Below, piece after piece: positions 1,577 through 26,817 of a stretch of 64,000 bases of DNA. Source of the DNA: Anaerolineae bacterium (lineage in GTDB: Bacteria > Chloroflexota > Anaerolineae > DUEN01); NCBI GenBank assembly GCA_025060615.1, contig JANXBS010000002.1, positions 130,860 to 194,859 on the forward strand, read 5' to 3'. Position 1 is the first letter of the stretch. Each line of letters begins with the position of its first letter. A program made the position numbers and the translations under genes. A model generated the notes under the pieces. That model worked only from the letters and a program-made list of their open reading frames with translations, was not told where the DNA came from and made no database searches.

Positions 1577-3112
1577 TCACTCCAAAGCGTGTAACTGCTC
1601 ATAGACGGGGCAGAGCGCGGTATAAGCGGCCTGGAACACCGGGAACAGCCGCTGGTACACCGCCTCCGTTGTCGGATCAGGCTCATGGCGATCCACGATC
1701 TCGATGAATCGATCCACCACGTCGAAATCAGGGAACAGCCCCACCCCGACGCCCCCGGCGATGGCTGCTCCTAGCGAGGTCGCTTCTTCCAACAGACGTG
1801 GGCGCAACACGGGCAAACGATAGATATCAGCCATGAGCTGACGCCAGAACCGCCCTCTAGCCCCGCCGCCGATGACGCGCATTTCTCGGATCTCGGCACC
1901 CGCCTCCAGGAATACCTCCAGGATCATCTTTAGGTTCATCGTGATCCCTTCCAGCGTCGCCCGGATCAGGTCTTCGCGCGTGTGCTTAAGGGTTAACCCG
2001 ATAAAGGCCCCGCGCGCCTTAGGGTTCCAGTAAGGCGTGCGCTCACCCAACAGGTAGGGGAGGAAGATCAAGTGATTCGCCCCTGGCGGTGACTGCTCCG
2101 CCTTGAGGTTCATGATCTCGTACACATCTACGTCCGCCTGCTCAGCTGCCAGCGCCTCTGAAGTGCAGATCTGGCGGCGCAGCCACTGGTACGATCCGCC
2201 GGCCGCCTGCATCGTACCACAAGGAATGAACTTGCCAGGGATCATATGAGCGTAGTTAAAGATCTTCATGCCTGGGTCCACCAGTGGCTGCGAGGTCGTG
2301 AGGGCGATCCACGACGAGGAGCCCACGTAGTTGTAGGCCAGGCCCTCGCGTACGGCACCGGCGCCGACCGTAGCACTGGCTCCATCCCCCCCGCCGATGA
2401 CGACGGGGATGCCTGCGCGCAGCCCCAGCTCAGCAGCCGCCTCACGGGTGACCTCGCCTACCACGTCCGTGGAATCGTGGATCTCCGGCAATAGCTCGGC
2501 GTCCAACCCTGCCGCATCCAGGATCTCGGCCGACCACGTCCCTTGCGCCAGGTCATACAGGTTCATCCCCGACGCATCAGAGCGATCGGTTACAAAACAG
2601 CCGGTAAGGCGATAGACGATATAATCCTTCACATGCAGGAATTTATGCGCCTGAGCGAATACTTCTGGCTCGTGGTCACGCACCCACATGATCTTGGCGC
2701 CCGAGAGCGTGGGGGTGATGCGGTGGCCGGTGATGCGATACACCTTGGCCATCCCCAGTTTGGCCTCCAACGCGGCAGCCTGTTCGACCGAGCGCTGATC
2801 AGCCCAGATGATGCAACGGCGCAGAGGTCGCCCCTGCCGATCCACCGGAAGACAGGCCTGCATCTGTCCGCTAAACGAGATACAGGCCACATCCTCGGGC
2901 CCCACTGAGGCATTGGCGAAAAGCCGCTGTGTGCACGCGCAGACGGCCTTCCACCAATCAGCGGGGTCTTGCTCCGCCCAGTTGCTGCGGGGATGGTATG
3001 TCTCATAACTGTAGAAAGTGCGGGCTACAACTTGTCCATCGGGGCCATAAAGGGTTGCCTTATCACCTGTGGTGCCCAGATCATGAGCGAGGATATGTTG
3101 GGGTTGAGACAT
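1577..3112 (-). CDS. FGGY-family carbohydrate kinase (xylulokinase-like)
   Basis: 511 aa. Shows the FGGY N-terminal motif (HILAHDLGTTGDKATLYGPDGQVV) and FGGY C-terminal region. Last gene of the sugar ABC operon. Confidence 0.8.
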   Translation of the reverse strand: MSQPQHILAHDLGTTGDKATLYGPDGQVVARTFYSYETYHPRSNWAEQDPADWWKAVCACTQRLFANASVGPEDVACISFSGQMQACLPVDRQGRPLRRCIIWADQRSVEQAAALEAKLGMAKVYRITGHRITPTLSGAKIMWVRDHEPEVFAQAHKFLHVKDYIVYRLTGCFVTDRSDASGMNLYDLAQGTWSAEILDAAGLDAELLPEIHDSTDVVGEVTREAAAELGLRAGIPVVIGGGDGASATVGAGAVREGLAYNYVGSSSWIALTTSQPLVDPGMKIFNYAHMIPGKFIPCGTMQAAGGSYQWLRRQICTSEALAAEQADVDVYEIMNLKAEQSPPGANHLIFLPYLLGERTPYWNPKARGAFIGLTLKHTREDLIRATLEGITMNLKMILEVFLEAGAEIREMRVIGGGARGRFWRQLMADIYRLPVLRPRLLEEATSLGAAIAGGVGVGLFPDFDVVDRFIEIVDRHEPDPTTEAVYQRLFPVFQAAYTALCPVYEQLHALE

Positions 3113-3193
3113 AGTTCTGCTCTCGATCGCAAGGCCAGGGTAACGAACAGCAAGGTTAAAGCGCTGAAGCGACTATTCTCCGTAGATGTTGAA

Positions 3194-4225
3194 TCAACCC
3201 TTGATAGCTCCCACCAGCAAGCCGCGGGCAATGTATCTTTCCAATGCAATCGCCATCGCGATGACCGGGAGGATCATGATTAGGATTAATACGGACATAT
3301 ACCACCATTGCGGCCCGCGCGTGGCATTTTGCGCGGCAACCGTCAGCGGCAATGTCTGCGCTCTTGCGCTGGTGAGAAAGAGGGCCAACAGGTATTCGTT
3401 CCAGGCGAACACCAGCACGAAGAGGAAAGTGGCCACAAGGCCAGGAGTGGAAAGGGGCAAAACGATAGACCAGAAGATGCGATAGCGAGAGGCCCCATCA
3501 ATCGCTGCGCACTCCTCCAGTTCCACAGGGATGGTCTGGAAGTAATCGCGCATCAGCCAGACCACGATAGGCAGATTGGTAGCCACGTACGTGGTGATCA
3601 GCGCAATCCTGGTGTCGAGCAGGCCCAGCCGCTGGTATAGGATGTAAATCGGCAGGACCACCGCCACTGGCGGCAAAATCCGCTGTGAGATCATCCAGAA
3701 GGCGATGTCGTTATTGCTCAGCGAACGGCGGAAGCGCCGGCCGATGGTCTGGGCCAGCAAAAGGAAGACGGCGATGCAGGAGACCACCGTCACCTGCCAG
3801 GGCGCCCCCAGCGTGATCGCCACAATGGCCAGCGCCACACATCCGATGAACAGCCCGATTGTGCCCAGGCGTGGCCGATATTGAAAGCGGGTCAGCGCAT
3901 AGGAGGCGGCCGTACCCAGTGCCAACGTGAGCACCGTACTGGTCAATCCCACGACGACCGTGTTCATATAAGGGCGCAGGGTGTCATTGCGCAGATCTAC
4001 GAAGATATAACGCCAGGCATGACCTGAGGGCTGAAAATCCACAAACGGCAGATATACTGGGCCATCGTTCACGTGGATCGGCAGCTTCACCGAGGTGACG
4101 ACCAGCCAATACAACGGAAACAACACGATGAAAGCCCAAAACCCCAGGATGAGGTAAGATACCACCATCCCTGCTGGAGAGGGCACAAACGGAGACAACG
4201 CGATACGACGACTACGGCCCAACAT
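3194..4225 (-). CDS. Carbohydrate ABC transporter permease (MalG-like)
   Basis: 343 aa, multi-TM. Has the EAA loop region (AAIDGASRYRIFWSIVLPLSTPGL). Confidence 0.85.
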   Translation of the reverse strand: MLGRSRRIALSPFVPSPAGMVVSYLILGFWAFIVLFPLYWLVVTSVKLPIHVNDGPVYLPFVDFQPSGHAWRYIFVDLRNDTLRPYMNTVVVGLTSTVLTLALGTAASYALTRFQYRPRLGTIGLFIGCVALAIVAITLGAPWQVTVVSCIAVFLLLAQTIGRRFRRSLSNNDIAFWMISQRILPPVAVVLPIYILYQRLGLLDTRIALITTYVATNLPIVVWLMRDYFQTIPVELEECAAIDGASRYRIFWSIVLPLSTPGLVATFLFVLVFAWNEYLLALFLTSARAQTLPLTVAAQNATRGPQWWYMSVLILIMILPVIAMAIALERYIARGLLVGAIKG

Positions 4226-4246
4226 CCTCTAGTCCCTCAACTCACA

Positions 4247-5422
4247 TCATAGCGCTTCCACGAACCGACGGCGGATCAGGTTCACCGCAACCATCGCCAC
4301 GAACGTGACGACGAGCAGTAAAATGTAGGCCACTGCTGCCGATCCCCCTACGTCCAACGTGCGCCAAGTCATGAACGCGTGAAGGGTGAGCGACTCGGTG
4401 GCCGTCCCCGGGCCACCGTTGGTGAGCACGTTCGGCAAATCCACGATCTTAAAGGCCTCAATCAATCGGATCAGGATCAACGTGGAACTCACCGGCAGGA
4501 TCTGCGGCAACGTGATCTCCCAGAAGATCTGCCAGCGGGTTGCGCCATCTACCACCGCCGCCTCGATGGGCTCGGTGGGCTGGCTCTCCAGCACGGCCAG
4601 GAGCACGATGAACATGAACGGCGTCCACTGCCAGATATCGCCGATCATTACCGCCGCCCGCGCGCCCCAAGGGTCGTTCACCCATGACCAGGCCCCCAGA
4701 CCCAGGGCCATCCAGATCGGGGCAAAGGGCCCTTTGGTCATGTCGGTTAACATGCGGAAAGTGTAGGCGATGCCCACCGGCGTGATCATCATCGGCAACA
4801 GGAAGACCACTCGGAAGAAGCGCCGGCCGGGGATCTGTTGGACGCAGAGCAAGGCCAGCAAGAGCCCTAACAAGTATTGGATCGCCACACCTACGAACAC
4901 GTAAATGAGGGTGACCACCAAGGTGCCCGGGCGGCCATGCGGACTGACCGTGTGCACCACCAGCCAAACGCCAGCCCCGGTGATCACGGCGGCCACACAG
5001 CGCCAGAAAAACCCGCGCGGAGAGAAGTTCTCACTGCGAGCGTAGCGCCACAGGGCCAGAGCCAAGCCGAGCACGCTCGCGCCGAAGATCAGCCAGCCCA
5101 GGGGCGATGGGTTCGATAAGACGCCGAGAAAGTGTTCTCGCTCGCTTCCCAAGAACAGCTTACGATAGTTGGCCAGCCCGACGAAGGAGATCTTGAAGCC
5201 CCCCTTCACAAACTGTAGCCGCGCCAAGGACAGGTATAACGACACGATGAGAGGGAAGATGGAGAGGAACAAGATCACCAGGACGGAAGGCAGCAAGAAG
5301 GCACTGCTGGCCAAGCCTTCCAACCGCAAGGCCAGCTTCGTCATCGGGCTGATCACGGTAACCGTCGGCTCCAGGCCCGGCTCAACCGGGGCCGGACCTG
5401 GAGCAGGCTTTGTGACTGCCAT
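4247..5422 (-). CDS. Carbohydrate ABC transporter permease (MalF-like)
   Basis: 391 aa, multi-TM. Has the EAA motif (EAAVVDGATRWQIFWEITLPQILPV). Confidence 0.85.
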   Translation of the reverse strand: MAVTKPAPGPAPVEPGLEPTVTVISPMTKLALRLEGLASSAFLLPSVLVILFLSIFPLIVSLYLSLARLQFVKGGFKISFVGLANYRKLFLGSEREHFLGVLSNPSPLGWLIFGASVLGLALALWRYARSENFSPRGFFWRCVAAVITGAGVWLVVHTVSPHGRPGTLVVTLIYVFVGVAIQYLLGLLLALLCVQQIPGRRFFRVVFLLPMMITPVGIAYTFRMLTDMTKGPFAPIWMALGLGAWSWVNDPWGARAAVMIGDIWQWTPFMFIVLLAVLESQPTEPIEAAVVDGATRWQIFWEITLPQILPVSSTLILIRLIEAFKIVDLPNVLTNGGPGTATESLTLHAFMTWRTLDVGGSAAVAYILLLVVTFVAMVAVNLIRRRFVEAL

Positions 5423-5427
5423 AACCT

Positions 5428-6957
5428 CTATTCCTTAGGAATGCCAAGGGTCGCCTTATAGGCCGCGAGCTGCGACTCCCGGCCCAGCTCTTCCGTGATC
5501 TCCTCCCAGCCGTCGTAAATCTGCTTCATCGCCTCATCGCGGGTGATCTCGCCGGCCAGGAACTGGGAGACTGCCTTGTCCAACACGATCTGCTGGTAGC
5601 GCTGATTCTGTGGGATCCGTAGATCCAGCACCATGTTGGGGCTTTCCAGGCTAGCCTTGATCGCCCCCAGGTAGTCCTTGGCAGCGGCCTCGCTCATGCC
5701 GGCCTTTACCCACAGGTCGATGTTCTCAAACTGCGAGATGCGGTACGGGTTGAAGCCCGTCCGGCCGATGGTCACGTCTACGTTGGCCTGCGCCGGCTGA
5801 GACATGTAGGAGAGGAAGGCATACGCCGCATCCTTGACCTTGGGATCCACAGCCGCGTTGATGGCGCCAGACCAGCCGCCAAAGGCAGCATAGGGAGCGT
5901 GGTTCACGCCGTTAATCGCATAGGGGCAGGTCTTCTCGTCGCAGTCCACCAGCTTGCCAGTGGCCCGATCGAGCACCTTGCGGGAACCGGGTAGGATGAC
6001 CGAGCCTACTTTATCAATCACCTTAGAAGTCTCCGGATCAATCGCCAAGGTGCCGATGTCGCCCCAGTCGATGGAGAGCGCACAGCGGCCGGAGGTGAAG
6101 AGGCCGCGCGTATCGCCTACATCCAAGTTTAGCTCATCTGGTGGGCCGTACTTGGTCGTCTCGTTGTAGACGTCCAGCGCCGCCGCAAAGGCCTCGTTGT
6201 TAACCAGGGGCTTGAAGGTTTCAAGATCGAAGAACGAGCCCTGCGCGGTGCCCTGGCTCTGCAAGAAGCCGGCAGCTACCGACCACACCATCCAGTAGGC
6301 TTGCGCGTTGCGCTTCTTGGAAATGCACGAGCCATAATCCGGGGTGCCATCGCCATTGAGGTCTCTGCCGTGGAAGGTCTTGGCGATGTTCAGATAGTCC
6401 TCCCACGTCTCAGGTGGCTTGAGCCCCTCTTGCTCCAGCAAGTCCTTGCGGTAATAGGCCATCTGGAAGTCGCCATCCAGCGGGATGGTGTAAATGCGGC
6501 CCTCGTAAGTGGAGCTGAAGTTGCGGAAGAAGGGTGCGATATCCTCCCATTGAAGGTCCTTGTCCGCCTTCACCCGATCGGTCAGATCCTCCAGATAGCC
6601 GGGGACGATGTAGTCCACCATCCACTGGGGGGCGAACACGAAGGCCTGATACGCGTTGGTACCCGTCGCCAGATCAGTCAGGATCTTTTGATAAAGATCG
6701 CTGAAGGGGACGACGACCACGTTGATCTTGGCACCGGTGAGCTTCTGGAAGTCGGGGGCTCGCCGCTGCAGTGGCTCAGCGATCTGTGGGCCGGTGAAGG
6801 TCAGGACATTTACCTCGATGCCCTCGAACGGCAAGGCCGCCTTGGGTGTTTCCGCTGGCGCCACCGCGACCGGAGTTGCCGGCGGCACGCAACCAATGAC
6901 CAAGAGGAGCAGGATACCGAAGAAGGACAGCAATGCCAGATGGGTACGCCGAAACAT
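5428..6957 (-). CDS. Extracellular solute-binding lipoprotein of a CUT1 sugar ABC transporter
   Basis: 509 aa. Signal peptide with lipobox (LLVIGC). SBP family 1 architecture. First gene of the SBP-permease-permease-kinase operon. Confidence 0.8.
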   Translation of the reverse strand: MFRRTHLALLSFFGILLLLVIGCVPPATPVAVAPAETPKAALPFEGIEVNVLTFTGPQIAEPLQRRAPDFQKLTGAKINVVVVPFSDLYQKILTDLATGTNAYQAFVFAPQWMVDYIVPGYLEDLTDRVKADKDLQWEDIAPFFRNFSSTYEGRIYTIPLDGDFQMAYYRKDLLEQEGLKPPETWEDYLNIAKTFHGRDLNGDGTPDYGSCISKKRNAQAYWMVWSVAAGFLQSQGTAQGSFFDLETFKPLVNNEAFAAALDVYNETTKYGPPDELNLDVGDTRGLFTSGRCALSIDWGDIGTLAIDPETSKVIDKVGSVILPGSRKVLDRATGKLVDCDEKTCPYAINGVNHAPYAAFGGWSGAINAAVDPKVKDAAYAFLSYMSQPAQANVDVTIGRTGFNPYRISQFENIDLWVKAGMSEAAAKDYLGAIKASLESPNMVLDLRIPQNQRYQQIVLDKAVSQFLAGEITRDEAMKQIYDGWEEITEELGRESQLAAYKATLGIPKE

Positions 6958-19810: not shown

Positions 19811-20830
19811 CTAGAAGCCGAAGCTGTCCACGTTTTCCGGCGTGATGTCAATCATAGCGTCCACGATCAGGACGTTGCCCTTGAGCTGAACCGCCCCAAT
19901 GGTCGGGATCTCCATTCCATCGGTGACCTGGCCGCCATCGAGGATATGTTTGGCCAGCCAGACCAGCCCGTAGCCGGCGTCCTTCGGATCCCATAGGATG
20001 CCATGATCGAGGCAACCATCTTTGAGATACGGGGCGGCATGGCTAGGGATCACAGTGCCCACGACGGCGATCTTATCGCATAGCCCCTTCTCGCGAACGG
20101 CCTGGGCTGCGCCGGGAGGTCCCAGGCTGCCGAAGCCGATGATCCCCTTCAAGTCAGGGTAGGCCTTGATCAACTCCAACACCTTCTGGCGAGACAGCTC
20201 CTGGTCCTCGGCCGACGGGATGCGCTCCGTTACCAGCTCTAGGTTGGGGTACTTCTCAGCGGCATATTTAAGCCCCTCATCCGCCCACAGATTGTGGAGC
20301 GGCACCGTCAGGGAGCCCACCAGGATGGCGAACTGGCCGGAGTCGCCCATGAACTTAACCAGCATGTCCCAGTGGTGCTGGCCGAACTTGACGTTATCGA
20401 TGAGCTCCAGGTCATAGTCATTGCCCACCTGGTCCGGAGATTCATGGGTTAGGACGAGGATACCCCTCTCTTTAGCCTTGGCGAACACCGGTTCCAGAGA
20501 CTTGGCATCGTTGGGGACGACGGCGATGGCATCCACGCCCTTGCTGACCAGGTCCTCGACCACCTTGACCTGCTGAGCTGGGTCCGCCTCGGCCGGGCCG
20601 ACCAAGTAGGCGTTGACTCCTAACTCTTGAGCGGCCTGCTTGACGCCCTCCTCCATGCGGTTGAACCATGGAATGCCGGCGATCTTCACCACGACGGCGA
20701 TCTCGTAGGGCTCCTTTTCGGCCGCAACCTGCGGAGCTGCCGCTGGCGCGGGTGTGGGAGGCACACAAGCGCTGGCCACCAGGGCAACAAGGAGCATTAA
20801 AGAGAACAGGTAATACCGTAGAGATTTCAT
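19811..20830 (-). CDS. Periplasmic-type sugar-binding lipoprotein (RbsB/LsrB-like)
   Basis: Signal peptide with lipobox (LVASAC). Peripla_BP_4-like layout. Confidence 0.8.
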   Translation of the reverse strand: MKSLRYYLFSLMLLVALVASACVPPTPAPAAAPQVAAEKEPYEIAVVVKIAGIPWFNRMEEGVKQAAQELGVNAYLVGPAEADPAQQVKVVEDLVSKGVDAIAVVPNDAKSLEPVFAKAKERGILVLTHESPDQVGNDYDLELIDNVKFGQHHWDMLVKFMGDSGQFAILVGSLTVPLHNLWADEGLKYAAEKYPNLELVTERIPSAEDQELSRQKVLELIKAYPDLKGIIGFGSLGPPGAAQAVREKGLCDKIAVVGTVIPSHAAPYLKDGCLDHGILWDPKDAGYGLVWLAKHILDGGQVTDGMEIPTIGAVQLKGNVLIVDAMIDITPENVDSFGF

Positions 20831-24147: not shown

Positions 24148-25175
24148 TCCACCTGATCCACGGTGAGGAGGAGTTTCTGCGCTCCCGCCAACTGGCTGCG
24201 ATCCGGCAACAGGCCGGCCCTTCGGAGTTGGTCGAGCTCAACACCATCGAGCTTGCAGGCGATCGCGTGACGCCGAGCGAGCTACGAAACGCAGCCGATG
24301 CGGTCCCCTTCCTTTGTGAACATCGCCTGGTCATCGTCCATAACGGCCTAAGACGATGGGGGGACCAACCCGCCGAGATAGAAAAGCTCCTGAGCTATCT
24401 GGATCGTCTGCCGCAGACTACGGAGCTGATCTTCGTAGAGGAGCAAAAACTCGATCCTCGCCACCCGATCCTGCGTCACCTGCTCGCTTTGGAACAAGCT
24501 GGACAGGCCCGCGTCTATCTCTGCCTAACTCCTTCTCCTCGTGAGTTGCCTCAGTGGGTAAGAGACCACGCCCGCAGTAAAGGAGTGGCCATCTCCCCGG
24601 AGGCGGCAACGGCGTTAGCCGACTCGATCGGCCCAGATCTGCGTCTAATAGACGTAGAACTGGACAAGCTCGTCGCCTATGTGAGCCCGCGCCGGCGCAT
24701 TGAAGAAGCCGATGTCCACGCAGTGGTGCCCTATGCTCAGGCGGGCAACGTCTTCCATCTCGCCGATGCCATCGCAGAGCGGCGAACAGAGCAGGCATTC
24801 GTTTTGCTCCGCCGTCTGCGTGAATCGGGAAGCCCAGCCCCTTATCTGATCACCATGATCCAGCGGCAACTCCGTATCCTCCTGCAAGTGAGCGAGCTCA
24901 CCCGTGCAAGGGTCCCCTTCAACGAGATCATCTCCAGACTGGGCCTGCGTGACTTCATAGTCCGACGGGCCCAGCAACAAGCCCGCCACTGGACGACATC
25001 CGAGCTGATAGATGCGTTCCAGCTCCTCCTATCCGCCGATCTGGCGATCAAGACCGGACAACTGGACGAGGACACCGCGTTGGACCTGTTGCTAGTAGCC
25101 TTGATCTCGCGCGCGAAGCCGGACATACACAAAGAGCCGACTGGGCTGCGGCCTGCCTATCAGCTCTATCGGTAA
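24144..25175 (+). CDS. holA: DNA polymerase III subunit delta
   Basis: About 343 aa. N-terminus IHLIHGEEEFLRSRQLAAI, with C-terminal delta subunit helices. Conserved position after comEC. Confidence 0.8.
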   Translation: MIHLIHGEEEFLRSRQLAAIRQQAGPSELVELNTIELAGDRVTPSELRNAADAVPFLCEHRLVIVHNGLRRWGDQPAEIEKLLSYLDRLPQTTELIFVEEQKLDPRHPILRHLLALEQAGQARVYLCLTPSPRELPQWVRDHARSKGVAISPEAATALADSIGPDLRLIDVELDKLVAYVSPRRRIEEADVHAVVPYAQAGNVFHLADAIAERRTEQAFVLLRRLRESGSPAPYLITMIQRQLRILLQVSELTRARVPFNEIISRLGLRDFIVRRAQQQARHWTTSELIDAFQLLLSADLAIKTGQLDEDTALDLLLVALISRAKPDIHKEPTGLRPAYQLYR

Positions 25176-25555
25176 GTCTCATCCCCTTCTTCCGCCGCCT
25201 CATCTAGCCACCTTAGCGATCCGTCATCACCGATAATACGGAAACGGCGCTCCGCAGGTGGGGTCAAGGGAGGGACGTTCGAAGGTGAGAACGGCCAGTT
25301 TGGCTGCTGCGTCCCAGGGTTCAGCACGATCACGGGCGGCATGTAACGCTCATAGTTAGTTCGATCGGCCATCGTCCGGTCAACGGCGGATCGGCGTGAC
25401 GCTGCGATGATCAAAAGGCTGGTGGGGATTGAGGCGGCGACTCCGAAGATCACGCCGATAACGACTGCCATTGCATCAGTGCTCATACGCTGCCCGATGG
25501 TTACGGCCAAAGTGACTACAAACGCTAGGCATGCCACAGGTATAAGCCGTTTCAT
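25166..25555 (-). CDS. Small membrane protein (2 TM) with Pro-rich cytoplasmic tail
   Basis: MKRLIPVACLAFVVTLAVTIG...VVIGVIFGVAASIPTSLLIIAA. Its ATG overlaps the FtsK-like stop as ATGA at 25552-25555, consistent with translational coupling. Confidence 0.5.
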   Translation of the reverse strand: MKRLIPVACLAFVVTLAVTIGQRMSTDAMAVVIGVIFGVAASIPTSLLIIAASRRSAVDRTMADRTNYERYMPPVIVLNPGTQQPNWPFSPSNVPPLTPPAERRFRIIGDDGSLRWLDEAAEEGDETYR

Positions 25556-26817
25556 CGCTGATATCTCCTGTCCGGTGATGGTGAGCTCCAACCTCCTGTC
25601 AGCAACCCTCGTGCGCGTGCCATCCAGCCCAGCGGCCGTTCGGGTTTTGCTTCTCTAACACTCCAGCGCCGGGAATTGCGAGGGATCTCCCGCAGATGGG
25701 CAACCGCGGCTTCTGCGGTTGCTTCGGAGATGTACGCCGCCTGGAATCGCCACATCTGCCCATGGGTGACCAGCAGGAAATCGCCCTGGCCGAGAAGCTT
25801 CTCAGCCCCCGAACCGGCCAACCCAGTGGCGATCTTAGCCTCTTCCGGCGTCGTCACTGCGCCTACCAGCCGCACAGGGAAATTGGCCTTGGTCAGGGCG
25901 CCTACCGCGGAGGCTGTCGGCTTCTGGGTGGCCGCGATAAGGTGGATGCCTGCCTCCCGCCCACGTTGGGCCAGGCGCCGGATGCCTCTTTCTACCGGCG
26001 CGCCGCCGGCCTCGATCAGATCGGCTAGCTCATCTACGGCCACCACGATGGCCGGCGAATTGCAGCGCTGCCGATCCCGTCGCTCCATCTCCTCGATCAG
26101 CCGCTGAAGCACCATTCCAGCTTGGCCTGGATCAGATACGGGGGGGACAAGCAAATGTGGTAGCTGGAACAGCGGCGCCAGGCCTCGGCCTTTCGGGTCT
26201 AAAAGCACGATCTGTAAGCGACCTTGCGGGTTGTGGAGTGCCAAGCTCAGCAACAACGAGCGCATTAGCGCCGTTTTACCGCTGCCGCTGGTGCCGACGA
26301 TCAAGGCGTGGACAACGTCCGGGCTGGGCAGACGGAGGAGCAACGGCACGCCGGATTCATCGAGCCCCAGCACTGCGGTCATGGGTGGGATGCGCGCCAG
26401 CCTCTGACACAGCGGCAACAGCTCGACCGGCGCAGGCCTCTCCCGTGGGATTTCTACTTGGATGGTTCCGCCGCTACGGTAGATGCGGGCAGACCGAACT
26501 CCCAGAGCCATGGCGATCTCCTCGGCAAGGTTGCTGATTTGGCGGACGCGAGTCCCCATGCCCGTAGTCAGCTCAAAGCGCACCACGCGAGGCAGCACGA
26601 CGCCGCCCCACACCCGCCCCGGTATCCGATGCGAAGCCAGCACGGCTTCGATCTGGGCAGCTTCCATCTGCAATCGGCGACGCATAGGCAACCCTCCGTC
26701 TCTAACCATGACATGCATTGGCGCTCTGAGACAAGACACCAGGAAATAGATCAAATGTTCTAATTCCATTGTAGCAGAACCTTTGATCTGTGTCAAGCTG
26801 TCGTCATCTGTGATCAT
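25552..26817 (-). CDS. FtsK/SpoIIIE-family ATPase, motor domain only (no N-terminal TM, no gamma domain)
   Basis: Walker A (VGTSGSGKT), conserved LDPKG, Walker B (VVAVDELADL), and ATQKPT/KANFPVRLVG with the Arg finger region. 421 aa. Confidence 0.8.
   Translation of the reverse strand: MITDDDSLTQIKGSATMELEHLIYFLVSCLRAPMHVMVRDGGLPMRRRLQMEAAQIEAVLASHRIPGRVWGGVVLPRVVRFELTTGMGTRVRQISNLAEEIAMALGVRSARIYRSGGTIQVEIPRERPAPVELLPLCQRLARIPPMTAVLGLDESGVPLLLRLPSPDVVHALIVGTSGSGKTALMRSLLLSLALHNPQGRLQIVLLDPKGRGLAPLFQLPHLLVPPVSDPGQAGMVLQRLIEEMERRDRQRCNSPAIVVAVDELADLIEAGGAPVERGIRRLAQRGREAGIHLIAATQKPTASAVGALTKANFPVRLVGAVTTPEEAKIATGLAGSGAEKLLGQGDFLLVTHGQMWRFQAAYISEATAEAAVAHLREIPRNSRRWSVREAKPERPLGWMARARGLLTGGWSSPSPDRRYQR

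Follow-up and report, generated by a model that had tools for sequence, protein, structure and literature searches.

The window analysed here is a stretch of 64,000 nucleotides (nt) from contig JANXBS010000002.1 of an Anaerolineae bacterium (assembly GCA_025060615.1), and all coordinates below are positions within it unless another locus is named. Our subject is a pair of minus-strand genes, a short gene for an FtsK-type DNA motor (ftsK-short) and, directly behind it, a gene for a small membrane protein with two transmembrane (TM) helices. FtsK is normally one polypeptide, in which a divisome-binding membrane domain is joined to a DNA pump and to a sequence-reading, Xer-activating gamma domain. 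In the pair described here the pump and a membrane element are encoded separately, and the two genes appear to stand under the control of the SOS repressor LexA. In the literature we found no description of such an architecture, or of its SOS linkage, in Chloroflexota.

The motor and the small membrane protein

The longer minus-strand open reading frame (ORF) covers 25552-26817 and amounts to 421 amino acids (aa) if counted from its first ATG, which is how a preliminary description of this DNA had read it. That start was placed 44 codons too far upstream. We take ATG 26685 to be the true start, giving a coding sequence of 377 aa plus stop (25552-26685), because a promoter and two putative operator boxes fall inside the first 44 codons and are conserved as DNA in relatives, and because homologues are 334-405 aa long and the public gene call is also 377 aa. 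The stretch 26686-26817 is accordingly best read as non-coding promoter, operators and 5' leader. A ribosome-binding site, GGAGGG (26692-26697), stands 6 nt before ATG 26685. The smaller ORF (25166-25555) opens with the ATG at 25555, has AGGAG at 25565-25569 and encodes 129 aa plus stop. The TGA of the motor gene and the ATG of the small gene are merged in a stop/start ATGA at 25552-25555, as the preliminary description had noted, and in public gene calls (GCA_033581235.1, contig JAVQTP010000003.1) the products measure 377 aa and 129 aa and the genes likewise overlap by 4 nt. The 129-aa protein is identical to the NCBI hypothetical protein RML36_03300.

The motor matches the Pfam families FtsK_alpha (PF17854; E = 1.9e-11, 44.5 bits against a cut-off of 22.9), which begins at residue 3, and FtsK_SpoIIIE (PF01580; E = 1.2e-30). 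We place its alpha domain at residues ~1-85, the RecA-like beta domain at ~100-333 and a disordered tail at 334-377. The Walker A motif GTSGSGKT (26272-26295) and the Walker B Asp-Glu within IVVAVDELA (26029-26034) are present, together with VDELAD, ATQKPT and KANFPVR, and the alpha/beta core is therefore as complete as was first described. In an alignment of 60 homologues, G131, G134, S135, G136 and K137 of Walker A and D218 and E219 of Walker B are invariant, and so are R237, Q240 to R243, T253, Q254, N268, P270 and R272, which argues that the motor is selectively maintained and is presumably an active ATPase. The absence of a four-TM anchor, a long linker and a gamma domain has likewise been borne out: neither FtsK_gamma (PF09397) nor FtsK_4TM (PF13491) gave a Pfam match to the motor, and a hydropathy scan found no membrane segment in it. 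Against the NCBIfam model for DNA translocase FtsK (NF007615) the protein scores 124.7 bits, below the cut-off of 1566, its motor part alone matching.

Structural comparisons point the same way. In a phmmer search of the PDB, the best matches to the motor were the Pseudomonas aeruginosa and Escherichia coli FtsK motors 2IUU and 2IUS (E ~1e-40), with EccC (1e-14) and TcpA (1e-5) weaker. The AlphaFold2 model, built on 60 homologues, has a mean predicted local distance difference test score (pLDDT) of 88.7 and a predicted template modelling score of 0.84; it is confident for residues 1-333 and disordered from residue 344 on (pLDDT below 50 at 344-357 and 363-374), and it contains no winged helix in the gamma position. 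Foldseek ranked FtsK complexes with double-stranded DNA (dsDNA) first (6T8B; template modelling scores of 0.65-0.76 at ~30% identity), the fold also matching 2IUT, while TcpA (17% identity), EccC/EssC (~20%) and HerA all fell far behind. On these comparisons the motor is a true FtsK-clade alpha/beta ATPase with intact catalytic residues. Its closest likeness is to canonical FtsK/SpoIIIE of E. coli, P. aeruginosa and B. subtilis (SpoIIIE), with which it shares the alpha and beta motor and all catalytic motifs. It differs from them in the missing domains, in its divergence (~30-33% identity, with ~38 residues deleted from the beta domain), and in that the membrane element is here a separate downstream gene and that the genes often lie in a lexA operon.

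Within the disordered C-terminal tail (residues 334-377; 25555-25686) the motor has a basic motif, SRRW, and a short stretch predicted to be helical, ARARGLL. An (R/K)xSRRW motif recurs across homologues (alignment A3), many of which end in an amphipathic xxRLLGR-like helix. Perhaps these elements serve partner docking or membrane binding; their charge complements that of the small protein's acidic end.

A HMMER search of 1.84 billion cluster representatives with the motor returned 29,347 matches, the best 150 of which (224-372 bits) were examined. Nearly all of these 150 are 230-810 aa long, begin with the alpha domain at about residue 1 and have no N-terminal membrane segment; the exceptions are a few multi-motor proteins and P0343, in which an N-terminal TM helix and linker are fused to the motor. 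An extension of relatives into N-terminal TM helices, which the preliminary description had associated with an ordinary FtsK, was not seen in close relatives: the 120 homologues among the matches listed are all 334-405 aa long. Ten family members scanned with Pfam had no gamma or 4TM domain, and the extra length of longer members is a disordered C-terminal tail rich in Pro, Gln and Tyr. Probes for gamma in tblastn were positive in 16 of 17 other FtsK loci, the exception being L083, a distant variant of the short family, and found no gamma in the window or in ~70 related loci. No second FtsK and no gamma domain turned up in the 64 kb of the window or across the related loci (~590 kb), sequence that covers a fraction of each genome. 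A metagenome scan with the motor alignment recovered mostly canonical FtsKs, through generic patterns, and six family members.

Four high-ranking proteins, P0294, P0342, P0373 and P0379, were considered as canonical FtsKs of the same clade and rejected. They are tandem double motors, each half of which is only ~30-33% identical, and they rank high because the scores of the two halves add up; P0294, P0342 and P0379 carry gamma domains and P0373 does not. The long-tailed members P0267, P0276 and P0279 (566-786 aa) have a disordered linker of ~230-450 aa rich in Pro, Gln and Tyr, and their C-termini end in NGRxLLxxM...Y/F-K-I/V-S-S, reminiscent of the linker and C-terminal peptide design of FtsZ. 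In the one locus of these three that was examined, that of P0279 (L005:6001-8358), the 2-TM partner is still found downstream.

The small protein has two hydrophobic helices and a Pro-rich tail by hydropathy scan, again as first described. AlphaFold2 predicts helices at residues 4-23 and 27-70 and then a low-confidence, disordered tail. Residues 4-53 (25397-25546) are predicted by hydropathy, the AlphaFold2 model and alignments A1, A2 and A4 to form a two-helix membrane hairpin; in the alignments its core, GxRMSTDAMAVVIGVxFGVAASIPTSLL, is almost invariant and is followed by a basic stop-transfer sequence. Because basic residues flank both ends of the hairpin, the topology is probably N-in/C-in, with the tail in the cytoplasm on the side of the motor. 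The predicted cytoplasmic tail contains PPVIVLNP (25316-25339), in which P73 is invariant and P74, V75 and P80 are nearly so; the family form, PPV(I/V)VVNP, is followed by a Pro-rich linker of variable length. At the C-terminus lies RRFRIIGDDG with an acidic stretch (25220-25249), a candidate docking peptide in which R103, F105 and G109 are invariant in 57 homologues. Its consensus is R-x-F/Y-R-v-v-G-D/E, after which acidic residues and Trp often come. Across distant partners the tail varies from ~60 to ~185 aa, and the terminal motif is retained throughout.

We detected 530 homologues of the small protein, of ~92-149 aa. It belongs to no family in Pfam, NCBIfam, PADLOC or PHROG; at E <= 1 Pfam gave only a chance-level match to DUF4229 (E = 0.11) and no LysM, and there is no homology to FtsK_4TM. 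We therefore rejected the idea that the gene is a literal split of an ancestral FtsK, since it lies downstream of the motor and is not homologous to FtsK_4TM, and regard its product as a recruited partner.

Distribution of the gene pair

GTDB was scanned with the small-protein alignment A1, one genome per species (alignment A2 was too divergent to serve as query). The scan yielded 65 loci, all from metagenome-assembled genomes (MAGs) of Chloroflexota labelled Anaerolineae, Anaerolineales, Caldilineae, Chloroflexia or Chloroflexota. A full short ftsK lies directly upstream in 46 of them; in 7 it is cut by the contig end, 10 could not be assessed and 2 lack it. The co-occurrence of the pair, a point raised in the preliminary description, thus extends to 46 of 48 assessable species loci, and it holds in 5 of 5 assessable metagenome loci as well. 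Moreover, all six relatives of the motor on large contigs (43-62% identity) have a hairpin protein of the same anatomy downstream, and the flanking genes of these six differ completely. The distance from stop to start is -4 in 13 of the 46 loci, as in the window, -1 in two, and 4-52 nt in about 20.

The two exceptions are L059, a decayed orphan copy, and L032, in which ftsK is precisely absent between the gene for a Cys-rich protein and the small gene. L032 (519-2097) and L020 (3649-6348) are two contigs of one co-assembled MAG and encode LexA proteins that are 99% identical. The L020 contig carries lexA, the Cys-rich gene, ftsK and the 2-TM gene, and L032 the same set minus ftsK, which suggests that L032 is a natural deletion variant and that the motor is dispensable. 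In many MAGs the contig is interrupted inside the small gene or a short way upstream of it (L016, L018, L027, L029, L034, L035, L038, L040, L063 and L066), and nine MAGs have two loci each. These are probably strain mixtures in co-assemblies that break at the conserved ftsK, not true paralogy. Usually there is one locus per species genome, at about one copy per genome.

Relatives of the small protein are rare in viral contigs, with 2 found among 2.9 million. One of these, the IMG/VR contig L073 (5704-11321), encodes a distant 2-TM hairpin homologue with 37% identity over residues 1-79. Densely packed on the same element are genes for a D12 DNA methyltransferase and for two further FtsK-like ATPases, of 613 and 397 aa, and L073 may be mobile and employ a related combination of hairpin and pump.

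With hundreds of homologues of each protein, and catalytic residues invariant in 60 sequences, the observation is far beyond chance. Judged from these comparisons of sequence, the pair is a deeply conserved, vertically distributed two-gene module of Chloroflexota (Anaerolineae and Caldilineae).

Putative LexA operators and the lexA operon

Upstream of the motor gene we found a predicted sigma-70-type promoter (26768-26796, minus strand) with TTGACA at 26791-26796, a 17-nt spacer and TACAAT at 26768-26773. It has 11 of 12 consensus matches and a TG before the -10, and it is conserved in relatives. Two putative LexA operators overlie it. Box 1, GATCAAAGGTTC (26777-26788), lies in the spacer between -35 and -10, and box 2, GAACATTTGATC (26749-26760), just past the -10 and 28 nt from box 1. 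Each deviates by one mismatch from GAAC-N4-GTTC, the LexA motif of Firmicutes and Actinobacteria, variants of which are used in Chloroflexi (PMC4951493). They form the only such tandem pair in 64 kb, where 0.025 would be expected, and they align with the equivalent boxes in L008, L010, L009 and L011. The only perfect GAAC-N4-GTTC in the window, GAACACCGGTTC, lies at 20483-20494 inside a 339-aa ORF (19811-20830) and is consistent with chance (0.57 expected).

Related loci show the same signal. Within 1.5 kb upstream of ftsK in 50 loci (74 kb), GAAC-N4-GTTC occurs 73 times, against 21 times in the other 513 kb, a 24-fold enrichment, and many of those 21 boxes precede a lexA gene that is the first of two copies. 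Most boxes are arranged as inverted pairs in tandem, spaced 27-29 nt. They precede lexA when it heads the operon, and otherwise lie 48-270 nt before ftsK. Eleven loci are without a perfect box; all of them have at least one one-mismatch box within ~170 nt of ftsK, and in six of the eleven such boxes are paired at the same spacing.

In ~27 related loci lexA itself lies directly upstream on the same strand, sometimes in two tandem copies, and its product has LexA_DNA_bind (PF01726) and Peptidase_S24 domains. A gene for a 137-158-aa Cys-rich protein that belongs to no Pfam family recurs, often between lexA and ftsK. A ~76-aa protein (MxVxWxDDxxxK...FWLG) follows the small gene in ~28 loci, and a ~104-aa gene occasionally sits between ftsK and the small gene. 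The extended operon therefore reads lexA, Cys-rich gene, ftsK-short, sometimes the ~104-aa gene, 2-TM gene and ~76-aa gene, for example in L007 (573-3893), and also in L013, L015, L019-L023, L033, L036 and L039 (region ~2000-6600 in each). In the window, tblastn at E <= 1e-4 found no homologue of LexA, of the Cys-rich protein or of the third-gene product. In L008, the nearest relative, lexA is still found upstream, and holA and comEC are again the downstream neighbours; the genome of the window has lost lexA from this site or moved it.

These results suggest that the operon stands behind LexA operators. It looks LexA-controlled, and LexA binding and induction by damage would be expected. Such an arrangement, with the operators and the frequent place of the genes in the operon of lexA itself, points to a role in DNA damage rather than in plain housekeeping, conjugation or defence. 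Together with conservation across the class, the LexA linkage is the key addition to what the anatomy of the genes had suggested.

A proposed two-piece translocase and its rivals

We consider it somewhat better than an even chance (roughly 0.55) that the pair is an SOS-inducible, two-piece FtsK-type dsDNA translocase that the small protein, acting in trans, targets to the membrane or septum. The two genes would then form one operon encoding a single machine. The 377-aa motor would be a soluble, presumably hexameric DNA pump with neither a sequence-reading gamma domain nor a membrane anchor of its own. The co-translated 129-aa protein would insert as an N-in/C-in hairpin and expose a flexible cytoplasmic tail of ~75 aa, whose terminal R-x-F/Y-R-v-v-G-D/E peptide would recruit the motor to the membrane or septum, or bring both proteins to a common divisome partner. 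Two LexA dimers would sit on the strong sigma-70 promoter, so that synthesis of the pump would largely follow DNA damage, when it would clear broken, dimeric or unsegregated chromosomes from septa closing in the multicellular filament. In this scheme we infer that the motor forms a hexamer and pumps DNA, that LexA binds the operators, that the two proteins touch and that they act at the septum. A role of the small protein as membrane anchor of the motor is plausible from its tether-like anatomy, in which a hairpin bears a disordered tail of variable length with a retained terminal motif; P0343 instead fuses a TM helix and linker to the motor.

This scheme has three precedents. The ftsK gene of E. 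coli is SOS-induced from the dinH promoter (PMC4080785). In Streptomyces the small membrane protein SmeA targets the FtsK-like SffA to sporulation septa (PMC4255298), and smeA is a target of LexA in chromatin immunoprecipitation in S. venezuelae, where mitomycin C lowers, not raises, its expression (PMC9380542). SftA of B. subtilis is a soluble, septum-associated FtsK-like translocase with no membrane-spanning segments (PMC5357621). The likeness to SmeA-SffA, which is drawn by description, is that of a two-gene unit in a filamentous bacterium with a small membrane protein beside an FtsK-family ATPase; unlike the present pair, SmeA-SffA is restricted to streptomycetes and close relatives and is under developmental (Whi) control. 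The order of the genes also differs, smeA preceding sffA, opposite to the window pair. SftA shares with our motor the absence of membrane segments in an FtsK-family protein, and it acts at the septum. It differs in having a gamma domain and, at the N-terminus, a long soluble region for targeting, and it is not known to have a dedicated membrane partner gene or a lexA linkage. A damage-inducible two-piece FtsK that clears DNA from closing filament septa is the most economical model, and the pair would belong among FtsK-family translocases with trans-acting small membrane partners, here in the putative role of a tether.

Several observations weigh against this model. L032 keeps lexA, the Cys-rich gene and the 2-TM gene after the loss of ftsK, and the small protein may thus do something independent of the motor. 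The distant variant L083 (2116-4471; 38% identity, Walker B D-N rather than D-E, an acidic tail, one perfect SOS box before lexA) keeps lexA, ftsK and the third small gene and is without the 2-TM partner. No fusion of motor and hairpin was found among 390 retrieved proteins. The terminal motif of the small protein might bind a third party rather than the motor, and some long-tailed relatives of the motor themselves end in the somewhat similar Y/F-K-I/V-S-S peptide. In the window both boxes carry their mismatch, and lexA is not adjacent in this genome. Finally, because the motor is without a gamma domain, neither directional clearance guided by FtsK orienting polar sequences (KOPS) nor activation of XerD, both known from E. 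coli, would be expected.

The chief competing reading casts the small protein mainly as an SOS-induced inhibitor of cell division, of the class of YneA, SosA, ChiZ, DivS, SidA and DidA, merely co-expressed with a soluble pump that it does not anchor, so that division would pause while the pump and repair enzymes act. A lexA-linked small membrane protein is the typical genomic signature of such inhibitors (YneA, ChiZ, SidA), and this is what the lexA operon and regulon contain here. The persistence of the small gene behind lexA in L032 would also fit, and SftA reaches the septum with no anchor at all. We nevertheless think this reading unlikely, since the near-obligatory pairing with ftsK and the frequent translational coupling favour a stoichiometric partner, and since a conserved cytoplasmic peptide at the end of a variable linker resembles a recruiting motif. 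The small protein has no LysM or other domain of known inhibitors and no detectable sequence similarity to them, and to our knowledge none of the known SOS division inhibitors is obligatorily paired with an FtsK motor. Inhibition and anchoring could also coexist in one protein. A more doubtful reading makes the pair the only, ordinary housekeeping FtsK of the lineage in an unusual layout, with the SOS boxes as a secondary input like that of dinH. The usual single locus amid differing chromosomal neighbours fits this, NCBI labels the homologues 'DNA translocase FtsK', and the SOS promoter of E. coli ftsK is essential. Against it, the genes of many lineages sit inside the operon of lexA, a tighter link than in E. 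coli; the motor is only distantly related to canonical motors and is missing from one strain, L032; and with the 4TM and gamma domains, the divisome and Xer/KOPS functions that define a housekeeping FtsK are gone.

The preliminary description had also mentioned conjugation, type VII secretion and defence, none of which gained support. In actinomycete elements, FtsK-like motors with small membrane partners drive dsDNA transfer, and the pair might be a domesticated or mobile module of this kind, like TraB and Spd of Streptomyces, acting between cells or filaments. The likeness to TraB/Spd of actinomycete plasmids and actinomycete integrative and conjugative elements lies in an FtsK-like pump, hexameric in TraB, with small membrane proteins in filamentous bacteria. 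Anaerolineae are multicellular filaments too, and L073 joins a hairpin homologue to FtsK-like ATPases and a methylase. We regard this as quite improbable: TraB has a C-terminal winged helix-turn-helix that binds clt and sits in mobile elements, and the window motor has neither feature; its NCBIfam TraB score (NF041214) is 19.3 bits, where the cut-off stands at 800; around the pair the window has no genes for an integrase, for replication or of the kor type, and its guanine-plus-cytosine content is even; and two matches among the viral contigs contrast with a vertical, class-wide pattern. An anti-phage ATPase like SspH or the mad8 product of MADS, or a type VII-like secretion ATPase, is least probable of all. 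PADLOC matched the motor to the SspH C-terminus (9.5e-35) and to mad8 (2.8e-24), and NCBIfam to EccC and EssC, yet such matches reflect the generic FtsK ATPase fold, as do those in PHROG, and they fall far under family cut-offs (EccCa 56.5 bits against 509, for one ATPase domain only). In the comparisons of sequence and of structure, moreover, EccC and HerA come well below FtsK motors. Because Ssp, Dnd, MADS and Esx partner genes are missing nearby, this reading is effectively refuted.

A bolder extension of the two-piece translocase, which we hold to be very unlikely, is that after damage a membrane-tethered, sequence-blind pump not only clears septa but also moves chromosomal DNA through them between neighbouring cells of the filament, the intact genome of a neighbour serving as template for recombinational repair. 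It would be a chromosomal, SOS-wired analogue of the intramycelial spread by TraB/Spd, replacing a lost canonical FtsK.

A whole bacterial class seems to keep only the FtsK pump here, to pair it with a separate small membrane protein and to wire both to LexA. If the tether model is true, membrane targeting of an FtsK motor would prove modular and suppliable in trans, and septal DNA clearance would prove to be a dedicated SOS function. The pair also raises the question of how these filamentous bacteria orient DNA pumping and resolve chromosome dimers with no gamma domain. In addition, the 2-TM, Cys-rich and ~76-aa proteins become candidates for SOS genes not yet characterised in Chloroflexota, a phylum that is large but has been little studied.

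The neighbours of the pair are chromosomal housekeeping genes, among them the holA and comEC already named in the preliminary description. A nitroreductase gene and a DUF503 gene lie upstream, and convergent holA, a DUF6391 gene and comEC downstream. The small gene (minus strand) and holA (plus strand) converge and share 10 nt at their 3' ends (25166-25175), and no intrinsic terminator was found between the two. Elsewhere in the class, a giant FtsK-domain protein of 2846 aa (P0399/P0365; L077:6001-14541) is encoded in the Anaerolineae MAG GCA_033578585.1, an assembly other than that of the window. It combines a pair of TM helices at the N-terminus with six or more FtsK/SpoIIIE-like ATPase domains, and genes for a Ser/Thr kinase and an FHA-domain protein flank its own.

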